Source: Alphaproteobacteria bacterium | Lineage (GTDB): Bacteria > Pseudomonadota > Alphaproteobacteria > UBA828 | Direction: 5' to 3' | Assembly (NCBI GenBank): GCA_965221125.1 | Contig: CBDCRW010000004.1 | Location: forward strand, 768,001-832,000 | DNA: 64,000 nt | Shown here: positions 1 through 13,164 of the stretch, piece after piece | Layout of the letters: each line of letters opens with the position of its first letter | Numbering within the stretch: position 1 is the stretch's first letter | Translations under genes and position numbers: made by a program | Notes under the pieces: generated by a model | The model's database searches: none | What the model saw: the letters and a program-made list of their open reading frames with translations, nothing else | What the model was told of the DNA's origin: nothing

Positions 1-2
1 CG

Positions 3-383
3 AGCGAACGGAGAAACGGCGCGGGAGGAACGCATATCTACGATGCGGTACCCTTCGACTCTGAGACTATTGAAAGATCATTTATTGCAGGGCTTGAAAA
101 GCGCAAGGACGTGAAATTGTACATCAAACTGCCGTCTTGGTTCACGGTGACAACGCCGGTGGGAGAATACAATCCAGACTGGGCAGTGGTGATGGATAAC
201 CCGGACAGCGGGGATGACATGCTTTACCTTGTGCGCGAGACCAAGGGTACGCTAAGTCTCAACGATTTGAGGCCCAATGAACGGCGCAAGATAGCCTGCG
301 GTCGACGACATTTCGGGGATGCGCTCAAGGTGAGCTACGGTGTGGTGACGGGAGTGGATCAATTGCCCGGTGGCGAGGTATAG
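3..383 (+). CDS. res: Type III restriction-modification endonuclease (Res subunit), C-terminal part; gene starts upstream of the window
   Basis: Frame is open from base 3: IYDAVPFDSETIERSF..LE..VKLYIKLPSWFTVTTPVGEYNPDWA...ETKG...ERRKIACGRRHF. This matches the C-terminal PD-(D/E)XK nuclease domain of Type III Res proteins. Confidence 0.85.
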   Translation, partial: SERRNGAGGTHIYDAVPFDSETIERSFIAGLEKRKDVKLYIKLPSWFTVTTPVGEYNPDWAVVMDNPDSGDDMLYLVRETKGTLSLNDLRPNERRKIACGRRHFGDALKVSYGVVTGVDQLPGGEV

Positions 384-421
384 GCAATGACTGTCGTGGC
401 TTTGGCAAGCGGGGTGCAGCC

Positions 422-1426
422 GTGGTGAGGTCTTCGGGAAGAACCGGAAGTCGAACGGGAACGAAAGACGTGGTCCTGTGGAGGCGGCTGACGAATACCG
501 ATTTCAAGGCGATGAATGGACTGGCGGCGCCGCACGGTCGAGGCGGGGGAGCCATGCACATCGCTCTTGGTGTCGAATCGGATGACTTCCCCATACGCCA
601 ATTCCTACAAACGCGAAAGACGGAGGTCACTATAGTAACACAGGGTTGGCGGGGTCACCACGAGGAAGCGCAACTGACCTTTTCGGGCAATCCGGACCGT
701 CGGGGCGGTGAATGGCGCATTACGGATCAATATTCCCACAGGCACCCGGCATGGACATCAGGCGCCGGTTTCCCAGGCACATATGACTCTGGCGACCCTC
801 CGTACGTGCTTGTTTTCAGATCGCAAGATCAATTCCACGTCCGGCTAACGAGTGCGAGCGAGCTTCTATCGTTAAAGAGCGACGCGCCGCGGCGGTCCCG
901 CTCAGATCCCAAAGGCATTGGCGAGGTAACGCCAGGCCTTGCTCTACACTTCAATGTGCCGGAAAAATCGTCTCTGGACTATTTTGAGAAGCAGCAAGTA
1001 GAGGAACCGGAAACGTTCGATCCAAGCGATATCGCAGATGCGCGCGAGAAAACGTTCGGAGCTATTCTACGGCGACAGGGCCAACAACAATTTCGCCGGA
1101 AATTGCTGCGAGCCTATCGCAACACGTGTGCGATTTCTGGCTGTAGTACCCTTTGGGTATTGGAAGCAGCACATATCACTCCATACAGAGGGACAAAGAC
1201 AAATACGCTTGGGAACGGTCTCATACTGCGCGCCGACGTTCACACTCTATTTGATCTCGGACTGATATCGGTACACCCGTCCGCATTGGAAGTCAGAGTA
1301 TCGAGATTGGTGCCGGAGCAAGAATATTCGTCTCTGGACGGACGGCCGCTCGCGGTACCCAGAACAAAGTCCGCACAGCCGAGCAAGGCCGCCCTGCAGG
1401 ACCATTTTCGTCGGTTTCGTGGATAG
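422..1426 (+). CDS. HNH endonuclease with an uncharacterised N-terminal domain (putative restriction or defence nuclease)
   Basis: C-terminal RRQGQQQFRRKLL..Y..CAISG..LEAAHI.PY....N...NGLILRADVHTLFDLGLI is an HNH_2-type signature. It lies directly after res. Confidence 0.85.
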   Translation: MVRSSGRTGSRTGTKDVVLWRRLTNTDFKAMNGLAAPHGRGGGAMHIALGVESDDFPIRQFLQTRKTEVTIVTQGWRGHHEEAQLTFSGNPDRRGGEWRITDQYSHRHPAWTSGAGFPGTYDSGDPPYVLVFRSQDQFHVRLTSASELLSLKSDAPRRSRSDPKGIGEVTPGLALHFNVPEKSSLDYFEKQQVEEPETFDPSDIADAREKTFGAILRRQGQQQFRRKLLRAYRNTCAISGCSTLWVLEAAHITPYRGTKTNTLGNGLILRADVHTLFDLGLISVHPSALEVRVSRLVPEQEYSSLDGRPLAVPRTKSAQPSKAALQDHFRRFRG

Positions 1427-1840
1427 GCTTCGGCAGCAATTGGAATCGTGATCGCCGTGGAGATGAAGCCGTCTCCATCGTGCCGTGGTGGGAAACGGCG
1501 GCGGATACCCCCCGGACATCTGACCGCCACGCCGCACGCTCAGGGCCGGTCGCATCCTCTCGATGGTGTGAACCCGCATGGTGGAGACCGCGTCCGAGGG
1601 AAGCGGAGCGGTCCGCCTGCGGCGCGTCATGCGGTCGGCAAGACCCTGATACGGTGGCCAACCCAGGAGCGGTGCACTGTGATCGGCGGAGGAGGGGCAT
1701 CACGCCGTGAGGGCGGGCGTCGCCTCGCGCAGGCGAGTGGGTAATGTTGGTGGTCTTGGGAGCGGTCTCTCCGGCGGTGGTGCGGAGGACCGACTCTCGG
1801 TCTTCCGGATCGTCACGGCGGACGCCGGCCCCTGCGGAAT

Positions 1841-4132
1841 TCACTCTGATGACGACCGCGTTGTCCACGCACGAGACTTGCCAAGATCTACAAGCTGATG
1901 CGTCACGGAAACTTTAATTGCATTTTCTTCATCCTTTGGAACAATATATTGATGAAAGGCCGGTGGAATAAAAAAGTACACGTGGTCCCTATAGTACTGC
2001 AAACGCGACGAATCCAGTTCAATCGCCCCGTGAGGTTCGGCCACTCCATGAATGAGCTCCTCTAAAGTCACATGATAGAGGAAGGCGGTATCTAACTCAT
2101 CCGTGCCCGACCAAGTAATGCAGTTCGCAAACCAGACCACTGCAAAGGTTGAAAACGTGCGAATTATTTCCCCAAACGCCTTTGACGCGGAAATTGGAAT
2201 ACGTATGTAGAATCCCCCTAACTCCGTTGAACCATGGCTATCAACAATCTGGAGTAGCTTTCCGGGAACATCGGCTACGCCACCATCGTTGACTGCTTGA
2301 GTTTGATAATGTTGGTTATCCGAAGATACTTGAACCTGGGTGATGTCTTGCGCACTAACAATTTCAACTTGCGCTCCGAGACTTCGTCTTCTTACACCCT
2401 CTTGGGACGGACCCATCATCGAGGTCTCTATCTCACTCGGGACCAACTCCCAGAGTTCCGAGTGAGACTTTGCAAACGCTTCCAAATCTACTGCTCCATC
2501 GCCAAAAAACTTCGTGCTCCTTCTCTTAAGAGTATCCCCGAGATACTCCCTACTAAACGCTTCGATCATTGACCAAAGCAGTGGGGAGTAACCGAGTGGT
2601 CTTAGTTTCGCGAACTCCGCATGTCTCGTATCAACGTACACCACCGTTTTTCCATGTTCCTTTTTGTCACTCCAAAATATAGGAACATCCAAGGTCAATT
2701 TGCCCGGAAAAAAGGCAAATGTTTCTGGCTGATATAATCTCCTTATCGCCATATCCAACTCGGCAAGCAGTGCCCGTTCGAAGTCGTCTAACTCCACGTA
2801 TGGTTCCAAACGCTCAATCAAATTATCGAACGCGCTAGCCCTACAGAGTTGAGTGAGGTAAGAGATTTCGGCTCTGCGTCTATTCCTGTCCCCAGAAATA
2901 CACACCACAACATCCCCTTTGGCTTGAAGAACTTCCGCGGCCGGGGTTGTTGTGCTGGATAGTGAATAGAACACTCTCCTTTCCTTCGACATCTCCTCGA
3001 CATCCGATAAAAGAAGCGATCTACCATCTAAAGCGCGCACTCTGAGCAAGGCTAGCGAAGATAGGTCACCCGCTGCCAATATATCCGGAAGAAGCCTAAT
3101 GTGTTCGGAAAGTAACTCTTCATCCTGAACGACAAGGTTGCGCGCGTGGGCCTCGACGCACCGGAACATCTGTGTAATTTTTGAAAGAGACTCCGCATTC
3201 ACAGTATCTCTGCCCGCGGTCGGCGCCACCATATCTGAATCGAACCAACCGCTAATACCAATGCGGGAACTAATGTTTACCTCACAAATTCTAAATCCTC
3301 GCTTGAACGTGCGAACCGCGCCGTTCTCGAGCCGTACAAATCCCGCAAAGTCGATTACCTTCTCTGACTCCGTGGCGTCGATGAACTCAGCCGCCAAACT
3401 AGCTCCCTCGTCCTTGTAGAGGCGATAGGAGAACCGAACAGACCCTGCACGGTCCGTCAAGACTCCCGTAACCGGTGTGTAATTCTCACCTATTGAGGTC
3501 GTGCGCCCGCCGGAGATTCGGGTGCCGTCAAAATAGATTGGTTCCTCCACGTTGGATACAAATTGCTTTATGTACTCGAGCAACTGTTGTTTGTCGAAGT
3601 CTGATGCTGCTAATCCCACAACGACAGTACCGTGTGAATCCAACTGAGCTGTTTCCCGATACTTCACCGTTGGAAGCTGGCCCGCTAAAGTATCAAACTC
3701 ATCCTTACTAAGAGAAGTCTCGTGAGCGACCGAACAAGCTGTAGTACGTGAAACGACGGTTAGCTTCTCGCATACACCAAAGTTAGCGAATCCACCAATC
3801 CCGAACGTGCCTATGCATCCTGCACGCTTTGCCTCTTGCGTGTGCTTTCCACTTGCACCCATAGTCCAAAAATTTTGTCTTAGCTCATCCTTCGTCATTC
3901 CATTTCCGTCATCCTGGATCTCGCACCGATTGCCTTCAATCCGAATATCAATTCGATAGCCGGACTTCACGGACCGGTCATCCCGGGAGGCTTGAATGCG
4001 TACGGCGTCAATAGCGTTTTGTAGATTCTCTCTCAGAAACGCAAATTGATTGTCGTAGATGTGGCTAGCGATCGTTTCCAAAACCCGCGGAAAATCCACA
4101 CCAACATTGAAGTCGGCTTGATCAGACATCAC
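1841..4132 (-). CDS. Divergent Hsp90/HtpG-like GHKL ATPase with an extended C-terminus
   Basis: GHKL boxes FLRENLQNAIDA, DDGNGMT, IGTFGIGG and HGTVV. HtpG-like N-terminus VDFPRVLETIASHIYD and middle-domain PTAGRD loop. AT-rich sequence. Confidence 0.8.
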   Translation of the reverse strand: MMSDQADFNVGVDFPRVLETIASHIYDNQFAFLRENLQNAIDAVRIQASRDDRSVKSGYRIDIRIEGNRCEIQDDGNGMTKDELRQNFWTMGASGKHTQEAKRAGCIGTFGIGGFANFGVCEKLTVVSRTTACSVAHETSLSKDEFDTLAGQLPTVKYRETAQLDSHGTVVVGLAASDFDKQQLLEYIKQFVSNVEEPIYFDGTRISGGRTTSIGENYTPVTGVLTDRAGSVRFSYRLYKDEGASLAAEFIDATESEKVIDFAGFVRLENGAVRTFKRGFRICEVNISSRIGISGWFDSDMVAPTAGRDTVNAESLSKITQMFRCVEAHARNLVVQDEELLSEHIRLLPDILAAGDLSSLALLRVRALDGRSLLLSDVEEMSKERRVFYSLSSTTTPAAEVLQAKGDVVVCISGDRNRRRAEISYLTQLCRASAFDNLIERLEPYVELDDFERALLAELDMAIRRLYQPETFAFFPGKLTLDVPIFWSDKKEHGKTVVYVDTRHAEFAKLRPLGYSPLLWSMIEAFSREYLGDTLKRRSTKFFGDGAVDLEAFAKSHSELWELVPSEIETSMMGPSQEGVRRRSLGAQVEIVSAQDITQVQVSSDNQHYQTQAVNDGGVADVPGKLLQIVDSHGSTELGGFYIRIPISASKAFGEIIRTFSTFAVVWFANCITWSGTDELDTAFLYHVTLEELIHGVAEPHGAIELDSSRLQYYRDHVYFFIPPAFHQYIVPKDEENAIKVSVTHQLVDLGKSRAWTTRSSSE

Positions 4133-5876
4133 CGTTCTCCAACCGTGTCAGGAGATCTGAATCCCCAATTGAGCCCGCAACTCGCGTTGCTACGCCCTTG
4201 AGTTGACTGAAGGGCACGCCCAATGAGCGGGCCCGCTCCAAATGCTCCGAAGCGCGCTCATAATTGTCAACGTTCAGGCAACAGGTGGCGTCCAGGAAGT
4301 GATCTTGACCGGTCGCGTGCGGATACTGTAACAGGCGTTGGGATGCTTGGGCTGCCTCATCGTGATTACCTTGGGCCAAATGCAACTTTGCCAGAGCACG
4401 TAGTGCAGCCATTTCGTCTATTTCAGAAAGATCGCGTTGTTGTAACATGCGATGCAGTATAGTCACCCCGAAGTCAATTGAACCTCCCTCAGCGAGCTTG
4501 AGGGCTTGTAGAACGACTTGGTTTCCTCCAGAAGATTCGCTGCCACCGTCAAGCAGGACCTGTAGAATCCGTTCACAGTGCTCCTCTCGCTTCGCTAGCG
4601 ACGATTGAGCATGCGCGCTATCAGCGCAATCCGTCATGGCTTCGGAATAAAGATTCAAACACTGCACGATAGCGTTGTCCCATTGGTCTCGGCCCCAACA
4701 CGCCTTCCAGTGGATGAGAAATACGAGGCGTTTAATGCTCTGAGCAAGAGTAGTTTCGGCCGCCAGTGGGTCGGCCAAGGAAAGAAAAATGAGTTCGTCA
4801 CCATACAATATCGGAATTTCTGTAACTTTTTGTGACACCAAGCAGGTCAAATAATTGGTATAGGGAGTTGGGTGCGAGGAAACGATAGAGGAAACATCAT
4901 GCAAGTTGATCGAGTAGTCTCGTCGATCGGTTAATGTCCAAGACACGGGCTCTTGCTTCTCCCATGTCTTATTGTCATTCCTGTACTTGTGGACAACACA
5001 TTTTCCATCGCCTGTTAGTAGGTCTACAACTCCGTAGCCGTAACAGTTGGCTGACAAGCGGCTCTCATAAGATGCACCAGCCGTAAAGACTTTCAATTGA
5101 TTTCCAGCTTGAGACACGGTCTCTACTGAATCTTCGTGGACGTGGCCTCGAAGTAGAAGATGACAGTGTTCGGCAGCAAGATGCTTGATCGCTGTATGCT
5201 CAAAGGGGGCGAGCCAATCCAGTGGATGGTGCATAAGTCCTATGACTAATGACGGTTCAGAAAGTTTCGAGGAAAGGTCAATCAATTGTCGTTCGCCAAC
5301 CAATATGGAATGAGAATCGGTTTCTCCACCTTCTGATAGCCAAGTGGAGTCTATGAGGAGAACGGCAATGCTTAGACCGTGTATGTCGTGTTGAACAGAG
5401 TGTTGATAGCTAGTCTCGGAATAACGGTGTTCGTTACACAGTCTATTTGCAAATTCTCGGAATGCAGACTGTCTACGAAACAAAGTGCGACGCCGAGCTT
5501 CGTTACCAAGAAATTTGTCTACCTGGGTACTATCCTTTAAAAGAGACCTAGCGCCAGTAAAGGCATCGACTTCGATGTCTCGATTGATGTCATGGTTGCC
5601 TGGCACAAGCAATAATTTATCACTAGGGACACCAGTGTTTGCCAATAGTTGGCGGAGAAAGTCCTCAACGATCAAATACTCTTCAGTTTTCCCAGAAAAG
5701 GCCAAGTCGCCCGTAATGAAGATGAAGTCAAGAGGGATTCCAGTACAGTAGCGGTTGGATATGTCAGTTAAGAGGCTCTTGAGAACCACATCTTGGGACC
5801 ACTGCTCACTTTCCTTGAGATGAAAGTCGGATAGGTGGAGCCAACTCAATTGTTTTTGCAACGAAATGCTGGTCAT
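4122..5876 (-). CDS. Calcineurin-like metallophosphoesterase with C-terminal TPR-like repeats
   Basis: All five metallophosphoesterase motifs are present: LHLSDFH, ITGDLA, VPGNHD, MHHP and RGHVH. The C-terminus has TPR-like helices (ALRALAKLHLAQGNHDEAAQASQRLL, NYERASEHLERARSLG). It overlaps the ATPase start. Confidence 0.85.
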   Translation of the reverse strand: MTSISLQKQLSWLHLSDFHLKESEQWSQDVVLKSLLTDISNRYCTGIPLDFIFITGDLAFSGKTEEYLIVEDFLRQLLANTGVPSDKLLLVPGNHDINRDIEVDAFTGARSLLKDSTQVDKFLGNEARRRTLFRRQSAFREFANRLCNEHRYSETSYQHSVQHDIHGLSIAVLLIDSTWLSEGGETDSHSILVGERQLIDLSSKLSEPSLVIGLMHHPLDWLAPFEHTAIKHLAAEHCHLLLRGHVHEDSVETVSQAGNQLKVFTAGASYESRLSANCYGYGVVDLLTGDGKCVVHKYRNDNKTWEKQEPVSWTLTDRRDYSINLHDVSSIVSSHPTPYTNYLTCLVSQKVTEIPILYGDELIFLSLADPLAAETTLAQSIKRLVFLIHWKACWGRDQWDNAIVQCLNLYSEAMTDCADSAHAQSSLAKREEHCERILQVLLDGGSESSGGNQVVLQALKLAEGGSIDFGVTILHRMLQQRDLSEIDEMAALRALAKLHLAQGNHDEAAQASQRLLQYPHATGQDHFLDATCCLNVDNYERASEHLERARSLGVPFSQLKGVATRVAGSIGDSDLLTRLENGDV

Positions 5877-6409
5877 TTCGGGCCCCGGTACGGAAGCGAG
5901 CTGTTGGGACTAGCGTTTGGAGATAGCTGTGATGGCGTGGAGAGGAAGCAGAAATGTGGATTCCCTGGCGAGACGTGTAGGGTGTCGAATTCAGTTGTTT
6001 GGAGGTGTAGCGTGCGGTAGGTAAGCTTCATGGCCCTTAAGTCTTGTTGCACACTGACGGGGTATTGAGGGGAAAGAGAGTTGGTGCGGGGCTTCTGCTC
6101 CCGAGGGTGAGGGGTCGAGGTTAGTTCATTGCCGTGCAGTCGAAAGCGGCGGATGAGGAGTATTAGCCGAGTCAAAGCAGGTGGGCAACGCCCACTCCGC
6201 ATGACCGCGCTGGATCGGAGACGAACTAGAGCCACTGCGAGAACCGAGTCAGGTCGGTAGGGGCCGCGACGGTTCCGGGGACAGCAAGGATCACGAGGTA
6301 GTCTTGAACGGAGATGGGTGGCGCCACGAGTAGTTCTCGTATCGTGCGCGTGGCATCGGAGAATGGACCGGGCACCAGGCCGAGGTGGTTGGACAGAAAG
6401 CCGACGGGG

Positions 6410-6496
6410 TGCCCCAGTCCTTGCCTCGGACAGCTCAATGCAATCGTTCTAGACGTGCTCCCAGCGCAGGAACTGGATCTCCGACAACCGGCAGGC
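6410..6496 (-). pseudogene. Tyrosine recombinase/integrase fragment (catalytic Arg region)
   Basis: Reads ACRLSEIQFLRWEHV*NDCIELSEARTGA, matching the integrase pattern GCRxSEIxxLRWxxV..IxLPDxKTG, with an in-frame TAG. Confidence 0.7.
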
Positions 6497-6548
6497 CGAG
6501 GGTGTCCTTGAACCCGGCGTTGGGCCCGGGGTCGAGTGCTGGTGCGTG

Positions 6549-6745
6549 TCATGCGGTATCGAGGTCGCGCTCGATGCTGTTGCCGATGCGCGCCGCAGGC
6601 GTCTCCACGGTATCGCGGGCGAGATGTGCATACCGGGCGATTGTCTGAACCTGCGTATGGCCGAGCAGCTTCCCGATCAATGGCAGCGCCTCGCGCAAGG
6701 CAAGGGTACGCGAGGCGAAAATACAGCGTAGGTCCTGATCCAATT
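6549..6745 (-). pseudogene. Tyrosine recombinase/integrase C-terminal fragment
   Basis: QDLRCIFASRTLALREALPLIGKLLGHTQVQTIARYAHL is a degenerate HDLRH..LLGH..T.RYAH box II. No intact 5' part is present. Confidence 0.8.
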
Positions 6746-7106
6746 GTTTTGGCGGGTCGGCGAAGTCAGATGCGGGTCCGGGGAAGCAGCAGAATTCGAT
6801 GACGAGGACATGGAGGGCCGGCCGGGGTCTGGAGGTTGAACGCAACCGCTTTCGGCACGAAGACAAACGCTGCGCACGTTTCGCCTATCAAATCGAGAAA
6901 TCGAGGAATTCCGCGGGGTTGCGCGCACCCTCGCCGCATCGGGCCGCCATTCTGACGAAACGAGGGCATAGATGAGCGTGGGCGACAGCTACGGCCACGG
7001 GAAGGGCCGGTTGACGCCGCGGTGGGGCGGTCCTATGCCCCGAAGGATCGGGGGCAGGCCGACGGGACAGGGTGGTGAGCGAACGAATCGCACGGCTGCG
7101 TATTGA

Positions 7107-7328
7107 GCTTCAAGAACCGCTCCTGACCCGGCGCCGGCCTCCCCTGCGGACCGGTTGCCCCGGTGGGCCAACAGGAACCCCCCACGCGGCTTCGCTTCGC
7201 GTAGCGGGAGGCGCTACACGAAGCCGCGCGGGTCCCCCCTATTGACTACCGGGACAACCTCCGCTGTGCCTCTCAGGGGGGTCAATTTTGCACGCCGATA
7301 GGGGGTCAATCTTCAAAGCCGATTGACA
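7107..7328 (+). mobile_element. IS21-family right-end remnant (last istB codons, hairpin and terminal repeats)
   Basis: Ends in ...TTGACA at 7328 (TGTCAA on the minus strand). Two tandem 24-nt GGGGGTCAAT...GCCGAT repeats lie at 7277-7300 and 7301-7324. FKNRS* at 7109-7126 resembles an IstB C-terminus. Confidence 0.7.
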
Positions 7329-7609
7329 CCGCGGCCAACGACAACGGCGACGACCTCGGCCGCCGACGCATGGAGGTGCGGTTCGGATACGGCTTCGCGA
7401 TGTTGGGCGGGCGGTTCACCGGTACGCCTGAGGTCGCGCTCGGCCTGTCGGACACGAGCCGCGACTACGGCCTGGGCTGGCGGTTCGTCCGCGAGGGTTC
7501 GGGGCCGGGCTCACTCGAACTGTCGCTCGAGGCGCGCCGGCGGGAGAGCGTCAATGACGACCTCCCTCCCGAGCACGGCATCGGGGTCAGGCTGACCGCG
7601 CAGTTCTGA
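7328..7609 (+). pseudogene. C-terminal fragment of an autotransporter/outer-membrane beta-barrel protein, truncated at the IS21 end
   Basis: AANDNGDDLGRRRMEVRFGYGF..GGRFTGTPEVALGLS..RDYGLGWRF...LELSLEARRRE...EHGIGVRLTAQF has amphipathic beta-strands and a terminal Phe. The frame begins at the IS end. Confidence 0.7.
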
Positions 7610-7619
7610 TGGCGGTGGC

Positions 7620-8318
7620 TCAGCCGTCCAGGAGGCCCAGTGCGCGGGCGAGCGGCGGTGCGGCGCGCCAGGGCGCGGGGCCGGCGGGAAGACGGGGTAC
7701 GACCCTGATGGGCAGCGGCCCGGCGTGCCGCGCGATGGTCGCGGCGGTCTCGGCGGGCGGCACCGGGCTTTCCGGGGATTCGCTGATGACGAGGCCGGCG
7801 ACGGGGACGCCGCGCCCGCGGATGGCCGCGAGCGTGGTCAGCGTGTGGCTGATGGTGCCGAGGTAGCTGCCCGCCACCACCAGCGCGGGCGCGCCGAGCG
7901 CGGCGATCCAGTCGAGCACGGTGTGCTCGTCGTCGAGCGGCACCATGGCGCCGCCGATGCCCTCGATCAGCAGCGGGTCGCCCGCGGCGGCGCGGCACCA
8001 TGCGACGATCTCGGCGAGGTCGAGGCGGCGCCCCTCGCGGGCCGCTGCCATGTCGGGCGAGAGGGGCGCGGCGAAGCGCCAGGGCGCGATGGCGGCGACC
8101 GCGTCGGCGCTCACCGCCTCGGCGGTCACCGCCTCGCCGAGGCTCGCGAGCAGCACGCCGGGGTCGCTCTCCGCCAGCGTCGCCGGATCGTAGCCGCTCA
8201 GCACCGGCTTGAGCGCGCGCACCGGCCGCCCGGTTGCGCGAAGCTCGTGGCAAAGCGCCGCGGTGACGAGGGTCTTGCCGATCTCGGTGCCCGTGGCGGT
8301 GACGAAGAGCGTGCTCAC
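7620..8318 (-). CDS. bioD: Dethiobiotin synthase
   Basis: LFVTATGTEIGKT P-loop, ALKPVLSG, LIEGIGG and YLGTISHT. The GTG start overlaps the bioF stop (GTGA). Confidence 0.93.
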   Translation of the reverse strand: MSTLFVTATGTEIGKTLVTAALCHELRATGRPVRALKPVLSGYDPATLAESDPGVLLASLGEAVTAEAVSADAVAAIAPWRFAAPLSPDMAAAREGRRLDLAEIVAWCRAAAGDPLLIEGIGGAMVPLDDEHTVLDWIAALGAPALVVAGSYLGTISHTLTTLAAIRGRGVPVAGLVISESPESPVPPAETAATIARHAGPLPIRVVPRLPAGPAPWRAAPPLARALGLLDG

Positions 8319-9478
8319 CGCGCGGCTCGGTCGAGGATACGTTCGCGCACGATGTCCGCCAGCCGCGCGATGTCGGCATCGTCGTGACCGGCGCTGAAGG
8401 TGAGGCGGAGCCGCGCCGTGCCTTGCGGCACCGTCGGCGGGCGGATCGCGGTGACGAGGAAGCCCTCGTCCTCCAGCAGCGTCGACACCGCCAGCGCGCG
8501 CTCCGGCGCGCCGAGCAGGATCGGCACGATACAGCTTTCCGGCGCCGGCAGGTTGAGCCGGGCGCAGAAGAGCGCGGCCTTGCGGAGCGGCGCCGCGACC
8601 AGGTCGGGATCGTTCGCGATCAGGTCGAGGGCAGCGATGCTGGCGGCGACGGCGCCGGGCGGCAGGCCAGTGGAGTAGATGAAGGGGCGCGCCCGCGTGC
8701 GGATCAGGTCGATCACCGGCTGCGCCGCGCAGAGATAGCCGCCGTAGCTGCCGACCGCCTTCGACAGCGTGCCCATCTGCAGCGGCACCTCGGTCTTGGC
8801 GCCGCCCAAAAAACTCGAGCCGCGCCCGCCGCCGACCACGCCGATCCCGTGGGCGTCGTCGGTCATCAGCCACGTGTCGTGGGTTTCCGCGATTTCGGCA
8901 AGCGCCGCCACCGGCGCGAGGTCGCCGTCCATGCTGAACACGCCGTCGGTCAGCAGCAGCGCGCGCTCGTGGTCGGCGCGGTGGGCGGTCAACAGCTCCT
9001 CCACGTGGTCGAGGTCGTTGTGGCGGAAGATGTCGACGCGCGCGCGGGAGAGGGCGGCGCCCGCGCGGAGGCAGGCGTGGCTCAGCTCGTCGGCCACGAT
9101 CAGGTCGCCCGTGCCGACGAGGCTCGGGACGATGCCCAGGTTGGCGAGGTAGCCCGAGCCGAAGACGCAGGCGTCGTCCGTGCCCTTGAGCCGCGCGAGG
9201 CGGCCTTCAAGCTCGGCGAAGAGGGGATGGTTGCCGGTGACCAGGCGCGACGCGCCGGCGCCGGCGCCCCACCGCTCCGTGGCCTCGACCGCCGCCCGCT
9301 TGACCGCCGGGTGCTGCGACAGGTTGAGGTAGTCGTTGCTGCAGAAGGAGATCAGCGGGCGCCCGTTGCGCTTCACCCGGACGGGGCCGATCGGCGCGGT
9401 CTCGTGCACGGTGCGGCGCAGTTGCCGCTCCGTGAGCGCGGAAAGCTTCGCCTCGGCGAAACGTTCGAGCGTGTCCAT
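8315..9478 (-). CDS. bioF: 8-amino-7-oxononanoate synthase
   Basis: FCSNDYLNL, GAGASRLVTG, FSMDGD, DDAHG, GTLSKA and IRPPTVP motifs; adjacent to bioD. Confidence 0.93.
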   Translation of the reverse strand: MDTLERFAEAKLSALTERQLRRTVHETAPIGPVRVKRNGRPLISFCSNDYLNLSQHPAVKRAAVEATERWGAGAGASRLVTGNHPLFAELEGRLARLKGTDDACVFGSGYLANLGIVPSLVGTGDLIVADELSHACLRAGAALSRARVDIFRHNDLDHVEELLTAHRADHERALLLTDGVFSMDGDLAPVAALAEIAETHDTWLMTDDAHGIGVVGGGRGSSFLGGAKTEVPLQMGTLSKAVGSYGGYLCAAQPVIDLIRTRARPFIYSTGLPPGAVAASIAALDLIANDPDLVAAPLRKAALFCARLNLPAPESCIVPILLGAPERALAVSTLLEDEGFLVTAIRPPTVPQGTARLRLTFSAGHDDADIARLADIVRERILDRAAR

Positions 9479-9522
9479 GCGCCGCGTCCCCGCGCCGGTG
9501 CCCGCGGCCGCGCCCGTGCCGG

Positions 9523-10935
9523 CTAGAGTTCCCCTTCGCGGCGCAGCATGCGGATGGTCTCACGCAGCGCGTCGGCGGTGACCGCGAGGTCGTCCGCCGT
9601 GTTGGCGGCGGACGTCATGCCGCCGGGCCAGCCCTGGATGTCCACCCCGTTCACCAGCAGGCCGAGGCGGATCTTGTTCACCAGCGCCGGCGGGCGATCC
9701 TTGAGCTCCGCATAGTCGATGGTAAGCGGATCGAAGGTGGACGGCGTGATCGCGCGCCCGCGCGGGTTCATGAAGAGGTGGAAGGACGAGAACGTGCCGT
9801 AGACCGACCAGGGCACGCCTTCCTCCTCCAGCACCGCGTTGAGGCCGGCCCGAAGCGCCGCGCCGAAGGCGGACGCCCGCTCGCAGGCGTCCGAATCCCG
9901 CACGATGGTGAGCGCGGCCGTGCCGGCGGCGGCGGAGACGGGGTTCGCGTTGAAGGTGCCGGGATGGAAGATCTTCTCGCGGCCGCTCTCCCTGGTCGCG
10001 AAGAAGTCGAGGTCGTCGAGAATGTCCCTGCGCCCGGCCACCGCGCCGCCGGGCAGCCCGCCGGCAACGATCTTGGCGTGGGTGCTCATGTCGGGCGTGA
10101 CGCCGAAGTGCCCCTGCGCGCCGCCGGGGGAGACGCGGAAGCCGGTAATCACCTCGTCGAAGATCAGGATCGCGCCGTGCTTCGCCGTCAGCTCCCGCAG
10201 GAAGCCCAAAAACTCGAAGGCGTGGGGCACGAGGCCGAAGGAGCCGCCGGTCGGCTCCAGGATCACCGCAGCGATGTCGTCGTCGGCCTCGAAGGCGGCG
10301 CGCGCGGCCTCCTCGTCGCCGGGCGGCAGCAGGATCACCTGGGCGGCGAGGTCGGGCAGCACGCCCGCCGTCGGCGCGCCGTCGAAGTGCGAGGTGTAGC
10401 CGGAGGTCATGTGGTCGTGCCAGCCGTGGAAATGGCCCTTGAAGCGCACGATCTTGTTCCTGGCCGTGTGCGAGCGAGCGAGGCGGAGCGCCATGTGCGT
10501 CGCCTCGGTGCCGGAGGACGTGAAGCGCACGCGCTCGGCGCAGGGCACAAGCTCGCGCACGATCTGCGCCCAGCGGACCTCGCGCTCGTGGTTGGCGCCG
10601 GGGTGCGTGCCGTCCGGCAGCGCCTCCTGGATGGCGGCGAGGACCTCGGGCCGGCCGTGGCCGAGCAGCAGGGCGCCGTGGCCGCCCGCGTAGTCGACGT
10701 ACTCGTTGCCGTCCCGGTCCCACTTGCGCGAACCCTCGGCCCGCGTGACGTAGATGCCGTAAGGCTCCAGGTGGCGCGCATCGTGGACGATGCCGGACGG
10801 CAGAATGTCCCTCGCCTCGGCCGCGAGCGCCGCCGACGCCGGCGTCTTCGCCCGGTAGGCCTGGATGATGCCGGAGTTGGAGGCGAGGATTTCGGCGCCC
10901 GCCCCAGCGCCCGCCTGCGTTGCCACCGTGCTCAT
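9523..10935 (-). CDS. Class III PLP aminotransferase, glutamate-1-semialdehyde aminomutase (HemL)-like
   Basis: DGNEYVDY, LLGH, FTSSGTEAT, GHFHGWHD, LIFDEVITGFR, AKIVAGGLPGG and GTFNANP motifs. Start taken at MSTVAT. Confidence 0.85.
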   Translation of the reverse strand: MSTVATQAGAGAGAEILASNSGIIQAYRAKTPASAALAAEARDILPSGIVHDARHLEPYGIYVTRAEGSRKWDRDGNEYVDYAGGHGALLLGHGRPEVLAAIQEALPDGTHPGANHEREVRWAQIVRELVPCAERVRFTSSGTEATHMALRLARSHTARNKIVRFKGHFHGWHDHMTSGYTSHFDGAPTAGVLPDLAAQVILLPPGDEEAARAAFEADDDIAAVILEPTGGSFGLVPHAFEFLGFLRELTAKHGAILIFDEVITGFRVSPGGAQGHFGVTPDMSTHAKIVAGGLPGGAVAGRRDILDDLDFFATRESGREKIFHPGTFNANPVSAAAGTAALTIVRDSDACERASAFGAALRAGLNAVLEEEGVPWSVYGTFSSFHLFMNPRGRAITPSTFDPLTIDYAELKDRPPALVNKIRLGLLVNGVDIQGWPGGMTSAANTADDLAVTADALRETIRMLRREGEL

Positions 10936-10991
10936 CCTCCGTTCCGCTCGACGTGGGCCTCGCCCATGTCGCAGTCGATGTCGATCCCCAT
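10932..10991 (-). pseudogene. 19-codon ORF resembling the N-terminus of PxpA/LamB-YcsF
   Basis: MGIDIDCDMGEAHVERNGG*, compared with the family start IDLNCDMGE. It has a GGGGAG RBS, and its stop overlaps the next ATG. Confidence 0.45.
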
Positions 10992-11200
10992 CGTCTCCCC
11001 CGCTGTTCCGTCGCGCGTCCGCCTCCCGCCGCCCGCGGCGCGACGAGCACGATCGTTCAACCGTAGCAGCAATGCGCTGCAATCTCGATTCCGTCGTCGG
11101 CTAACCTGCCCGGCCGCGGCCCCGGCTATGCACCGGCCCGGTTCCTTTGCGCGCCGGAACCGTGTGCTTATATGTCAAAGGAGTCGGAGCCCGAGTCGCA

Positions 11201-12013
11201 ATGAATGCGCCCGCCGATGCCGTGATCAGGGCAGGTCGTTCAGCACAACGCGCATTCGAGCGCCTGCAGGGGAATCGGGCGGCGGCAGGCATCCTCTCCT
11301 TCACCGGCCTCGTGCTCGGAACGCTGCGCGATCTCGCGCCGATCATCGCGGTGGTTGCGGTCTTCCAGGTCGCGATCCTGCGCCAGCCGTTTCCCGATCT
11401 TGGCGGCATCATCGGCGGGCTCGTGCTCGTGATGCTGGGGCTCGCGCTGTTCATCAAGGGGCTGGAGATGGGCCTCTTCCCGCTCGGCGAGGGCCTGGCG
11501 CAGGGTTTCGCGCTGAAGGGCAGCCTCGTCTGGCTCCTCGTCTTCGCCTTCGCGCTGGGATTCGGGACCACGGTCGCGGAGCCCGCGCTGATCGCGGTGA
11601 CGGACGAGGCGTCGCGCGTCGCCGCCGATGCGGGCGTGATCGCCGCCGGCGCCGACGCGATGGAGGCGTACGCGCTCGGCCTGCGCTACACGGTCGCGGT
11701 CTCGGTCGGCGTCGGCATCACGCTCGGCGTGCTGCGCATCCTCAAGGGCTGGCCGCTGCACTACTGGATCATCGGCGGCTACGTCATCGCGGTGGGCCTC
11801 ACCTTCCTGGCGCCCGACGAGATCGTCGGCATCGCCTACGACTCCGGCGGCGTCACCACGTCGACCATCACCGTGCCCATGGTGACGGCGCTCGGCGTCG
11901 GCCTCGCGGCGTCGATCCGCGGGCGCAATCCGCTGATCGACGGCTTCGGCCTCATCGCCTACGCGAGCCTCACGCCCATCATCTTCGTGCTCGTCTTCGG
12001 CATGGTGTTCTGA
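11201..12013 (+). CDS. DUF1538 family multi-pass membrane protein
   Basis: [37 protein letters not shown] and DGFGLIA motifs; hydrophobic. Start uncertain. Confidence 0.85.
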
Positions 12014-12024
12014 GGGGCGGCGCC

Positions 12025-12810
12025 GTGGAACTGCTCTCCCGCATGGCCGAAGCCGGCCTCGATACGGTGCGCGACATCGTGCCGCTCATCGCCATCGTGC
12101 TGTTCTTCCAGATCGTCGTCCTGCGCCGGCGCCTGGCGAACCCCGGCCGGATCATCGTGGGCTTCGTCTATGTCACCGTCGGGCTGGTGCTGTTCCTCAT
12201 CGGGCTGGAGGAGGCGCTGTTTCCCCTGGGCAAGACGATGGCGGCGCAGCTCACCGACCCGGCCTTCCTCGGCCTCGCCGAGGGCGCGAGGGCGCACTGG
12301 CTCGACTACGGCTGGATCTACGTGTTTGCGGCGGCGATCGGCTTCGGCACGACCATCGCGGAGCCCTCGCTCATGGCCGTCGCCCGCAAGGCCGGCGACG
12401 TCTCGGGCGGGACGATCAGGCCGTGGGGCCTGCGGATCGCGGTCGCCACGGGCGTCGCTGTGGGCGTCGGGCTCGGGACCGTGCGCATCGTCACCGGGGT
12501 GCCGCTGCACTACCTGTTCATGGCTGCCTACGTGATCGTCATCGTGCTGACGATCTTCGCCTCGCGCAGCATCATCGCGCTCGCCTACGATTCCGGCGGC
12601 GTCACGTCGTCGACCGTGACCGTGCCGCTGGTGGCAGCCCTCGGCCTCGGCCTCGCCGCCAACGTGCCGGGGCGCAGCCCGCTGCTCGACGGCTTCGGCC
12701 TCATCGCGTTCGCATGCATCTTTGCCGTCATCGCGGTGCTGGGGTTCGCCCAGCTCTCGTCGGCGCTGGCCGCCCTGCGCAGGCGCCGATCATCCGGGAA
12801 AGGAACCTGA
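12025..12810 (+). CDS. DUF1538 family multi-pass membrane protein (second paralogue)
   Basis: [36 protein letters not shown] and DGFGLIA motifs. Only the 3' part of the 9778-12810 ORF is real. Confidence 0.85.
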   Translation: MELLSRMAEAGLDTVRDIVPLIAIVLFFQIVVLRRRLANPGRIIVGFVYVTVGLVLFLIGLEEALFPLGKTMAAQLTDPAFLGLAEGARAHWLDYGWIYVFAAAIGFGTTIAEPSLMAVARKAGDVSGGTIRPWGLRIAVATGVAVGVGLGTVRIVTGVPLHYLFMAAYVIVIVLTIFASRSIIALAYDSGGVTSSTVTVPLVAALGLGLAANVPGRSPLLDGFGLIAFACIFAVIAVLGFAQLSSALAALRRRRSSGKGT

Positions 12811-12813
12811 CCA

Positions 12814-13164
12814 ATGCGCTTCAAGCTGATCATGGCGCTCGTGAGCTCGGATGAGACCGAGTCCGTACTCGCCGCCGGCCGCCGCAGCGGCGCAACCGGT
12901 GCTACAATCGTCACGGGCTGCCGCGGCGAGGGGCTCGAGCCGCAGCAGACCTTTCTCGGCTTGAGGCTGACCGGCCAGCGGGACATCCTGCTGTTCCTCG
13001 TCGAGGAGCACATGAGCCGGACCGTCCTTGAGGGGATTGCCACGGCCGGGGCCTTCGAGGAGAAATCGGGGACGGGGATCGCGTTCCAGATCGCCATCGA
13101 AGACGCGGTCGGCCTTTCCCATCAGATTGCCGAGATCAAGCACGAGATCGAGGACCAGATATGA
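12814..13164 (+). CDS. P-II family (GlnB-like) signal protein
   Basis: KLIMALV, GATGATI, RGEG and GTGIAFQIAIEDAVGL motifs; 116 aa. Confidence 0.85.
   Translation: MRFKLIMALVSSDETESVLAAGRRSGATGATIVTGCRGEGLEPQQTFLGLRLTGQRDILLFLVEEHMSRTVLEGIATAGAFEEKSGTGIAFQIAIEDAVGLSHQIAEIKHEIEDQI

Follow-up and report, generated by a model that had tools for sequence, protein, structure and literature searches.

A conserved two-gene module of a calcineurin-like phosphoesterase and an Hsp90-like ATPase as a candidate bacterial conflict system

Two systems built on a metallophosphatase, DS-8 (metallophosphatase-NACHT) and DS-9 (metallophosphatase plus HAD), protect Escherichia coli from phage and lose their defence when the metallophosphatase carries catalytic mutations, according to the available part of the DefensePredictor study (PMC13092281). 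PUA-Calcineurin-CE-HAD has the same metallophosphatase-plus-HAD composition as DS-9, and the accessible text of a preprint reports that PUA-Cal-HAD depletes deoxynucleoside triphosphates and that Calcineurin-CE turns dNDP to dNMP and cleaves NAD+ in vitro (10.64898/2026.01.15.699771). Here we compare these and related systems with a pair of overlapping genes in a 64,000-nucleotide stretch of an alphaproteobacterial genome (assembly GCA_965221125.1, contig CBDCRW010000004.1, positions 768,001 to 832,000; the whole stretch is called the window below). One gene encodes a calcineurin-like phosphoesterase with a C-terminal tail resembling tetratricopeptide repeats (TPR), here P0002, and the other an Hsp90-like ATPase of the GHKL superfamily, here P0001. 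We think it probable that the pair forms a conflict system of some kind, and the evidence for this lies in the strict linkage and co-inheritance of the two genes, their intact catalytic motifs, the exchange of effector heads among relatives and their defence-rich neighbourhoods.

The pair resembles each of the described systems in part. DS-8, which is experimentally protective, has a homologous effector head and likewise couples its effector to an NTPase, but it is a single chain with a fused NACHT NTPase, and P0002 has no NACHT. DS-9 and PUA-Cal-HAD share the Calcineurin-CE head, with nucleotide depletion experimentally shown as the output of PUA-Cal-HAD; in the pair, however, no PUA-like domain precedes the P0002 head (which begins at residue ~10), no HAD partner was found among the conserved neighbours, and the partner is an Hsp90-like ATPase. 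Single-chain Cal-STAND-TPR proteins, whose NTPase is NB-ARC or NACHT and whose sensor is TPR or FGE-sulfatase, show the same order of head, NTP switch and TPR sensor, whereas a Pfam scan of P0002 detected no P-loop NTPase and the ATPase provided in trans is of the unrelated GHKL type. Tiamat (TmtA) is also a GHKL ATPase in defence, to which the N-domain of P0001 has a weak PADLOC match (E 3e-3); unlike the pair it is a single chain with a DUF3684 core and a C-terminal PD-(D/E)xK (NOV_C) nuclease, Pfam families that are absent here. In the available part of a second preprint, Tiamat is placed in a clade apart from Hsp90 and Hsp90-like proteins, and putative anti-phage Hsp90-like proteins, in which an HD or calcineurin-like head lies at the N terminus and the C-terminal domains vary, are mentioned with reference to Nicastro et al. 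2023 (10.64898/2026.09.30.754977).

As far as the accessible text describes them, those predicted proteins share with the pair an Hsp90-type ATPase, a calcineurin-like, nucleotide-targeting head and a variable region as the proposed sensor. The pair differs in that the head belongs to a polypeptide of its own, which ends in a TPR-like tail, while the ATPase is a protein by itself (as it also is in 42 intact pairs), and in that the variable region is the tail of the partner (mean identity 0.26) and not the ATPase, whose extra domain is conserved (0.49). No fused head-ATPase chain longer than 1337 aa was found with P0001, which is weak evidence, nor is there one among the matches listed for 120 of the 407 long proteins that carry the head. 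HSP90- and HSP70-related modules have reportedly been presented, in the 2023 abstract by Nicastro and colleagues, as analogues of STAND and GTPase domains. Because of its separate head chain, the variable repeats on that chain and the conserved extra domain of the ATPase, we file the pair as a variant of a predicted kind of Hsp90-like system, so far as that kind is described in the accessible text, and not as wholly undescribed; the split, TPR-bearing form may already be contained in Nicastro et al. 2023 or its supplements. The original prediction, made from the DNA alone, had called the pair a candidate undescribed system, which holds to the extent that no named-system model in PADLOC 2.0 or NCBIfam matches beyond the head (there is none for a P0001-type ATPase), but not in view of the Hsp90-like anti-phage proteins predicted in the available preprint text.

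A further likeness is to a eukaryotic partnership. PP5 is a TPR co-chaperone of Hsp90 that combines a metallophosphoesterase-superfamily domain with TPR repeats, and in the pair, too, an Hsp90-fold ATPase is matched with a protein joining such a domain to TPR-like repeats. However, the domain order is reversed here, the phosphoesterase is of another clade and the ATPase has no C-terminal EEVD, so that the parallel is an analogy only, exactly as first proposed.

Linkage and domain make-up of the two genes

Both open reading frames (ORFs) are open on the minus strand of the window, P0002 at 4122-5876 (584 aa) and P0001 at 1841-4132 (763 aa), and are intact, co-oriented and overlapping as predicted. 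Codon 2 of P0001 is an ATG at 4129; it is the likely start judging from the sequence, since translation from there leaves an 8-bp overlap with P0002, as in relatives L001 and L006. A one-genome-per-species scan gave 68 loci from many phyla, and one protein search returned 611 relatives of P0001 from many lineages, with a full length of ~760 aa. The gene immediately upstream of the ATPase gene is of the partner family, and in the same orientation, in 61 of the 68 loci (58 recognised by tblastn with P0002, two as C-terminal fragments at contig ends and one as a DUF4062-headed form), bearing out the co-occurrence of homologues on which the original prediction depended. A partner-family gene is lacking at seven loci, namely four with ATPases at 23-29% identity, the degraded L065, an ATPase fragment at 38% identity (L058) and L067, at 28% identity and with little upstream sequence. 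Both ORFs are intact at 42 loci, and at 41 of these they overlap or have no more than 3 bp between them, the exception being L060 with a gap of 878 bp. ORF clustering revealed no third gene family common to the loci, the remaining clusters being antisense shadows or present in no more than 11 of the 68.

The pairwise distances of the P0001 and P0002 families are closely correlated (r 0.94 over 43 pairs, matched by 0 of 2000 permutations), and the correlation is also 0.94 inside the large 36-member clade alone. We read it as co-inheritance of the two sequences; contact between the proteins does not follow from the correlation by itself. The ATPase evolves more slowly, with a mean identity of 0.51 that is even over its domains (0.46-0.56; 0.49 in the extra C-terminal domain), and mean identity in P0002 is 0.41 for the head and 0.26 for the tail, the most variable part of the pair. 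The two genes are a dedicated, conserved and co-inherited module across many bacterial phyla. Decayed copies also occur: at L016 (3894-10004) an insertion of ~3.9 kb interrupts the phosphoesterase gene, and in L065, L066, L037 and L054 either the ATPase gene or that of its partner is fragmented into several ORFs.

P0001 was predicted to be an HtpG-like GHKL ATPase with N- and middle-domain motifs, and profile and structure comparisons agree. It matches HATPase_c_3 in Pfam (E 6.4e-12), and the top matches of a profile of 69 P0001 relatives are solely Hsp90-family N-domains (E 1e-21). The motif RENLQNAIDA aligns with the ATP-lid motif of yeast Hsp82, DNGIGM and GTFGIGGF align with their Hsp90 counterparts, and E35, N39, D74, G78 and G108-G114 are invariant across the 69 family sequences. 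The structural model (predicted local distance difference test, pLDDT, 80) matches full-length TRAP1, GRP94, HtpG and Hsc82 (Foldseek E 5e-21). A VIA alignment of residues 11-542 with HtpG 7-614 gave Z 22.1 and a root-mean-square deviation of 5.5 A over 485 residues, and residues 11-543 align with Hsp90 chains at Z 20-22 through their C-terminal domains, a likeness that in the middle and C-terminal regions is at the level of fold only (14-17% identity). P0001 thus combines a Bergerat N-domain bearing Hsp90-type motifs with middle and C-terminal domains of Hsp90 fold, and on the strength of the model we assign it as an Hsp90-fold GHKL ATPase, although the curated scores of the family are not reached (NCBIfam HtpG, 56.7 bits against 371; PRK14083, 76.1 bits against 455) and there is no Pfam HSP90 match at E<=0.1. 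The match to Hsp90 stops near residue 543. Beyond it the chain has a disordered loop and a beta-rich domain (621-751) and ends in a tail where D749 and W756 are invariant. Foldseek and VIA comparisons gave no Hsp90 counterpart for residues ~557-763, and an Atlas feature search with the extra C-terminal domain (621-763) gave scores of at most 0.77 and no usable match. P0001 has no EEVD, as had been noted.

P0002 matches Metallophos in Pfam (E 2.9e-10), and the five metal motifs that were predicted can all be read directly (D17xH19, GD57, GN94H95D, H216H217 and GH245xH247), their residues being invariant or nearly so across 42 partner sequences. Its AlphaFold model (pLDDT 90) shows a phosphoesterase domain (1-315), a small alpha/beta linker (325-370) and stacked helix pairs (376-581). 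The C-terminal TPR-like repeats of the original prediction are borne out by these helix pairs but not by family scores, since each of about a dozen matching TPR-type families falls under its Pfam cut-off (top, TPR_14, 20.5 bits against 23.5). The Pfam gathering score for TPR is reached by the distant partners at L057, L059 and L068, TPR-bearing upstream proteins of 256-508 aa, and the modelled helical repeat architecture of the P0002 tail is consistent with TPR.

The head of P0002 matches models from known or predicted defence systems, namely PADLOC PDC-S60 (2.5e-40) and 'Effector Endonuclease' (1.9e-27) and NCBIfam DS8_antiphage (5.8e-42; residues 14-316, 143.5 bits against a family cut-off of 790) and DS9_1 (2.1e-18), with the PDC-S60, DS8_antiphage and DS9_1 matches covering the head alone and far under whole-protein cut-offs. 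Its nearest profiles are these defence heads, and the same domain is elsewhere the N-terminal head of NTPase-sensor proteins. Given its metallophosphoesterase fold and complete metal-binding set, we assign the head by sequence comparison to the effector clade of DS-8 and DS-9/PUA-Cal-HAD (Calcineurin-CE), a membership judged by profile matches and architecture, not by the formal definition of Nicastro 2023. The top structural match of P0002 is PDB 9a6c_B, Bacillus subtilis YydB in an integrative crosslinking model of YydD-YydB (E 6e-20, 496 columns), suggesting that a related phosphoesterase is physically linked to a partner, although a search on YydB and YydD yielded nothing about their function; the next fold neighbours among solved structures are SMPDL3A/B, Rv0805 and GpdQ.

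A P0002-type head is carried by 407 longer proteins. Among the matches listed, which cover 120 of these, none has a GHKL family and many have PF05729, PF00931, PF13191, TPR families, PF03781 or PF13646, where we take the accessions to stand for NACHT, NB-ARC, AAA_16, FGE-sulfatase and HEAT, respectively. From these families, the usual setting of the head appears to be that of head, STAND NTPase and repeat sensor, and by this comparison P0002 has the Cal-STAND-TPR architecture minus its NTPase, with an ATPase of another fold encoded beside it.

Binding of the P0002 tail to P0001 is weakly supported by complex prediction. Full-length P0001 with P0002 350-584 scored 0.60 (runs 0.73, 0.54 and 0.60), against 0.00 for the best of three controls, and the runs agree in at least 51% of contacts with a partner pLDDT of at least 74. 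Of 80 solved complexes 58 passed the mark, as did 2 of 110 mismatched pairs, and scores of up to 0.60 that passed it came from 7 of the 80 solved complexes and from both passing mismatches; these benchmark counts hold only roughly, as our own alignments were used in the prediction. Because Hsp90-TPR complexes are among those already solved, likeness to them could contribute to the score. Gene linkage already provides a strong prior, and we take the score as a modest addition to it.

Distant ATPases keep an abutting upstream partner with a different head, which is PNP_UDP_1 in L056 and L065 and DUF4062 in L061. The PNP partner matches PADLOC PDC-M60C and the CBASS 'PN-superfamily' effector model. 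The tail of the L061 partner is homologous to P0002 323-556 (hhalign 99.2%, E 1.9e-19), so that, at the level of sequence, one kind of tail carries another head in this partner. For the PNP_UDP_1 partner in L056, no homology of the tail to that of P0002 is detectable (hhalign E 0.097), and a common tail is for this reason not established over all head types. Metagenome loci found with a distant-ATPase profile have an abutting upstream ORF in 75 of 80 cases. These ORFs belong to Metallophos in 50 cases (mostly with 480-500 aa) and to PNP_UDP_1 in 3; the other 22, to which no family was assigned, comprise 17 cut by a contig end and 5 complete at ~260 aa. At L082, L084, L085, L087 and L088 the complete upstream partner is ~240-264 aa long and has no Pfam family at E<=1e-5; such a short partner of ~260 aa may be a headless adaptor or an uncharacterised effector.

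Two same-genus relatives of the window genome have a 29%-identical ATPase gene that overlaps an upstream Metallophos gene by 4 bp, and a BsuBI/PstI restriction-modification (R-M) pair adjoins one of the two. One same-genus Metallophos partner (L075:7991-9487, minus strand) has a weak C-terminal match to Effector-associated domain 8 (E 0.008, below cut-off), which hints at a death-like adaptor where the TPR would be.

The neighbourhoods of the pair were sampled as the two nearest ORFs on each side at the 36 loci flanked left and right by 5 kb or more (144 ORFs; PADLOC E<=1e-10). PADLOC matches were found in 31 of these ORFs, spread over 19 loci, and include Type I, II and III R-M, BrxL/PglZ, AbiEii, CBASS cyclase and effectors, SIR2/PDC-S65, SoFic and HmaA/B/C. 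The rest of the window, taken as a control, had matches in 2 of 42 ORFs, both to one oxidoreductase model (Fisher p 0.011). The enrichment near defence genes that the original prediction expected is present, and the location of the pair in defence-rich contexts is supported. In a Poribacteria metagenome-assembled genome (MAG; L063:3907-20488), the pair is found between HmaA and HmaB plus HmaC, as if inserted into the Hma operon.

Proposed switch mechanism and alternative readings

On balance we lean, without great confidence, towards a two-gene conflict module, most likely an anti-phage one acting by abortive infection, in which a nucleotide-depleting effector is switched by an Hsp90-like ATPase in trans. 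The tail of P0002 would dock on a dimer of P0001, and the P0001 clamp would play in trans the role that NACHT or NB-ARC has in single-chain Cal-STAND-TPR proteins, as a STAND analogue. The ATPase might keep the effector head silent until a phage cue is sensed by the fast-evolving TPR-like tail, or trapped as a 'client' by the clamp, whereupon ATP-driven N-terminal closure would activate or cluster the heads. An active head would then degrade nucleotides or NAD-like molecules, so that their pools fall and the infection aborts. We take the ATPase to be a switch and not a folding helper because the same head is fused elsewhere to NACHT/NB-ARC NTPases with TPR sensors and because the head is swapped among relatives.

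Several points weigh against this reading. We found no experiment on this pair or on any Hsp90-like system, and the available part of the 2026 preprint calls such proteins 'putative' (10.64898/2026.09.30.754977). A nucleotide- or NAD-type substrate for the P0002 head is inferred from sequence, and weak matches to SbcD (5.4e-4) and to the Mre11 fold (E 3e-6) would leave room for a nuclease. The TPR assignment of P0002 is sub-threshold in Pfam, the complex prediction gave no interface and lends weak support to binding, and the 'client' idea is drawn by analogy from Hsp90, without direct support. The even conservation of the ATPase, its extra domain included, is not like that of a diversifying sensor. 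Finally, the flank control is small, with 42 ORFs from a single genome, and 17 of the 36 loci have no PADLOC match among the four nearest ORFs.

The alternative closest to the original prediction, in which the Hsp90 paralogue matures the effector, is that of a dedicated chaperone that folds, stabilises or sequesters a toxic TPR-phosphoesterase without itself acting as a sensor or switch. The full Hsp90 architecture with intact ATPase motifs, the obligate pairing with a TPR-like protein and the weakly supported tail-ATPase binding (0.60 against 0.00 for the best control) would all be expected of it. Yet the same head works without Hsp90 in DS-8, in DS-9 and in hundreds of STAND fusions, and unrelated heads (PNP_UDP_1, DUF4062) pair with the same ATPase family, a pattern for which a common switch is a better fit than a fold-specific chaperone. 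It would also leave the extra C-terminal domain unexplained in a protein that has no EEVD, and we consider this role unlikely. Head swapping also counts against a third possibility, that of a restriction-like pair in which a GHKL clamp of the MORC, MutL or BbrUII kind loads on foreign DNA and a metallophosphoesterase like Mre11 or SbcD cuts it, because the alternative heads are of nucleotide-type families. Such targeting of DNA is suggested by matches of the P0001 N-domain to the NCBIfam model of the BbrUII/HgiDII restriction enzymes (9.4e-9) and to MutL (3.4e-3), of distant P0001 relatives to PADLOC REase_II models, and of P0002 to sbcd and to Mre11 structures, as well as by the R-M genes that adjoin the pair. 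All these matches, however, are limited to the shared ATP-binding fold and lie far under cut-offs, and the whole-chain fold of P0001 is that of Hsp90, not of MutL or MORC. Furthermore, the nearest families of the head are DS8, DS9 and PDC-S60, nucleotide and lipid phosphodiesterases outrank Mre11 among its matches, and a Pfam scan detected no DNA-binding domain, which makes this explanation distinctly unlikely.

The pair could also be an accessory signalling or stress module outside immunity, for example a chaperone-gated cyclic-nucleotide or lipid phosphodiesterase that rides on mobile islands. Rv0805, GpdQ and SMPDL3 are among the fold neighbours of P0002, no phage assay stands behind an immune role, and close to half of the sampled loci lack a defence match nearby, as given above. 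Against this, the clade of the head is known from validated defence systems, and head swapping, patchy distribution and flank enrichment are the usual marks of conflict systems, so that we regard a non-immune role as very improbable.

Returning to the preferred reading of an ATPase-switched effector, a protective effect against phage would make P0001 the first tested Hsp90-architecture ATPase to serve as an immune switch, alongside those of the STAND, SMC/ABC and GTPase kinds, and would extend the growing class of nucleotide-depleting defences on a Calcineurin-CE head by a form made of two chains. The module is also common (611 ATPase relatives in one search, many phyla, conjugative plasmids), and would offer a simple bacterial system for studying how ATP hydrolysis by an Hsp90 clamp is coupled to a partner that bears TPR. 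A more far-reaching form of the idea, which we hold to be doubtful, is that the Hsp90-type clamp is a nucleotide-driven immune switch recruited in trans by a TPR-tailed, swappable effector, with the D749...W756 motif docking in place of EEVD. If so, prokaryotic immunity would have its own counterpart both to the partnership of Hsp90 with TPR proteins and to the part that Hsp90 plays in the function of innate immune receptors, with Hsp90 taking the place of the STAND NTPase itself.

Genomic island and distribution

The gene pair sits in a foreign, restriction-rich DNA island (Table 1). G+C content is 0.47-0.58 across the first 6 kb of the window and 0.47-0.51 at the pair, rises to 0.66-0.72 by 6.5-8 kb, where biotin-synthesis genes follow on the right, and is ~0.70 from 7 kb onward. 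The neighbours named in the original prediction, a Type III Res gene, an HNH nuclease and integrase remnants, were all found. The full Res protein has 912 aa and its Mod is encoded just upstream of the window (L070). The integrase remnant consists of two tblastn pieces (E 8e-19 and 1e-11), which are 57-64% identical to an intact integrase lying 10 kb upstream, within its residues 257-403.

Table 1. Features of the gene pair and its immediate neighbours (positions in the window)
Feature	Position	Strand	Basis
Calcineurin-like (Calcineurin-CE-type) phosphoesterase, assigned as effector head; P0002 residues 1-315	4932..5876	-	Pfam, PADLOC, NCBIfam, model, fold matches
Alpha/beta linker with conserved YLxxL..EVPI motif, then helical TPR-like repeats; proposed adaptor/sensor; P0002 residues 316-584	4125..4931	-	Sub-threshold TPR matches, model, hhalign
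GHKL/Bergerat ATP-binding domain, Hsp90 type; P0001 residues 1-215	3488..4132	-	HATPase_c_3, profile matches, invariant residues
Hsp90-like middle and C-terminal-domain-like region, including invariant PTAGR308 loop; P0001 residues 216-556	2465..3487	-	VIA, Foldseek, invariant columns
Low-confidence loop (575-620), beta-rich extra domain (621-751), tail with invariant D749/W756; P0001 residues 557-763	1844..2464	-	pLDDT, secondary structure, conservation
Type III restriction Res, C-terminal endonuclease domain; gene complete, begins upstream of the window	3..383	+	RE_endonuc 1.7e-36, REase_III
HNH endonuclease, restriction-type	422..1426	+	Pfam HNH_2 9.5e-12, PADLOC HNH 1.8e-16, NCBIfam PT-DNA_restrict 2.4e-11 (below cut-off)
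Integrase remnant, right edge of island	6359..6737	-	tblastn with intact integrase of L070:7068-8309

The island reaches at least 19 kb upstream of the window (L070, G000:C4:750001-769000; 370-12864). Genes there encode an SspA/DndA-like cysteine desulfurase (5e-129), a PDC-M33A-like protein of 770 aa, a PAPS-reductase-like protein (BrxP/SspD-like) and the intact tyrosine integrase; judging by these sequences they are possibly a phosphorothioation-type module adjoining the HNH nuclease, which resembles PT-dependent restriction enzymes. No tRNA that might mark the integration site was found in positions 1-12000 of the window or in the 19 kb upstream.

The distribution of the pair is patchy. A close orthologue was found in 0 of 60 relatives searched, and the nearest relative comes from an alphaproteobacterial MAG and has 87% identity. 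A search of sequencing runs listed no RNA data set that holds the sequence and, among DNA runs, partial shares in sponge and coral metagenomes, from which we infer no habitat. No match was found in GenBank phages, and none was confirmed in IMG/VR with two peptide patterns. Relatives are carried by three Pseudomonas aeruginosa conjugative megaplasmids and one Rhizobium plasmid. On one of these, the IncP conjugative megaplasmid pPUV-9 of P. aeruginosa (L073, 420627-424396), the pair comprises a 483-aa metallophosphoesterase and a 772-aa ATP-binding protein, which public annotation describes only in those terms ('metallophosphoesterase' and 'ATP-binding protein'), and it adjoins an ABC-three-component system and a YaaC-family gene.

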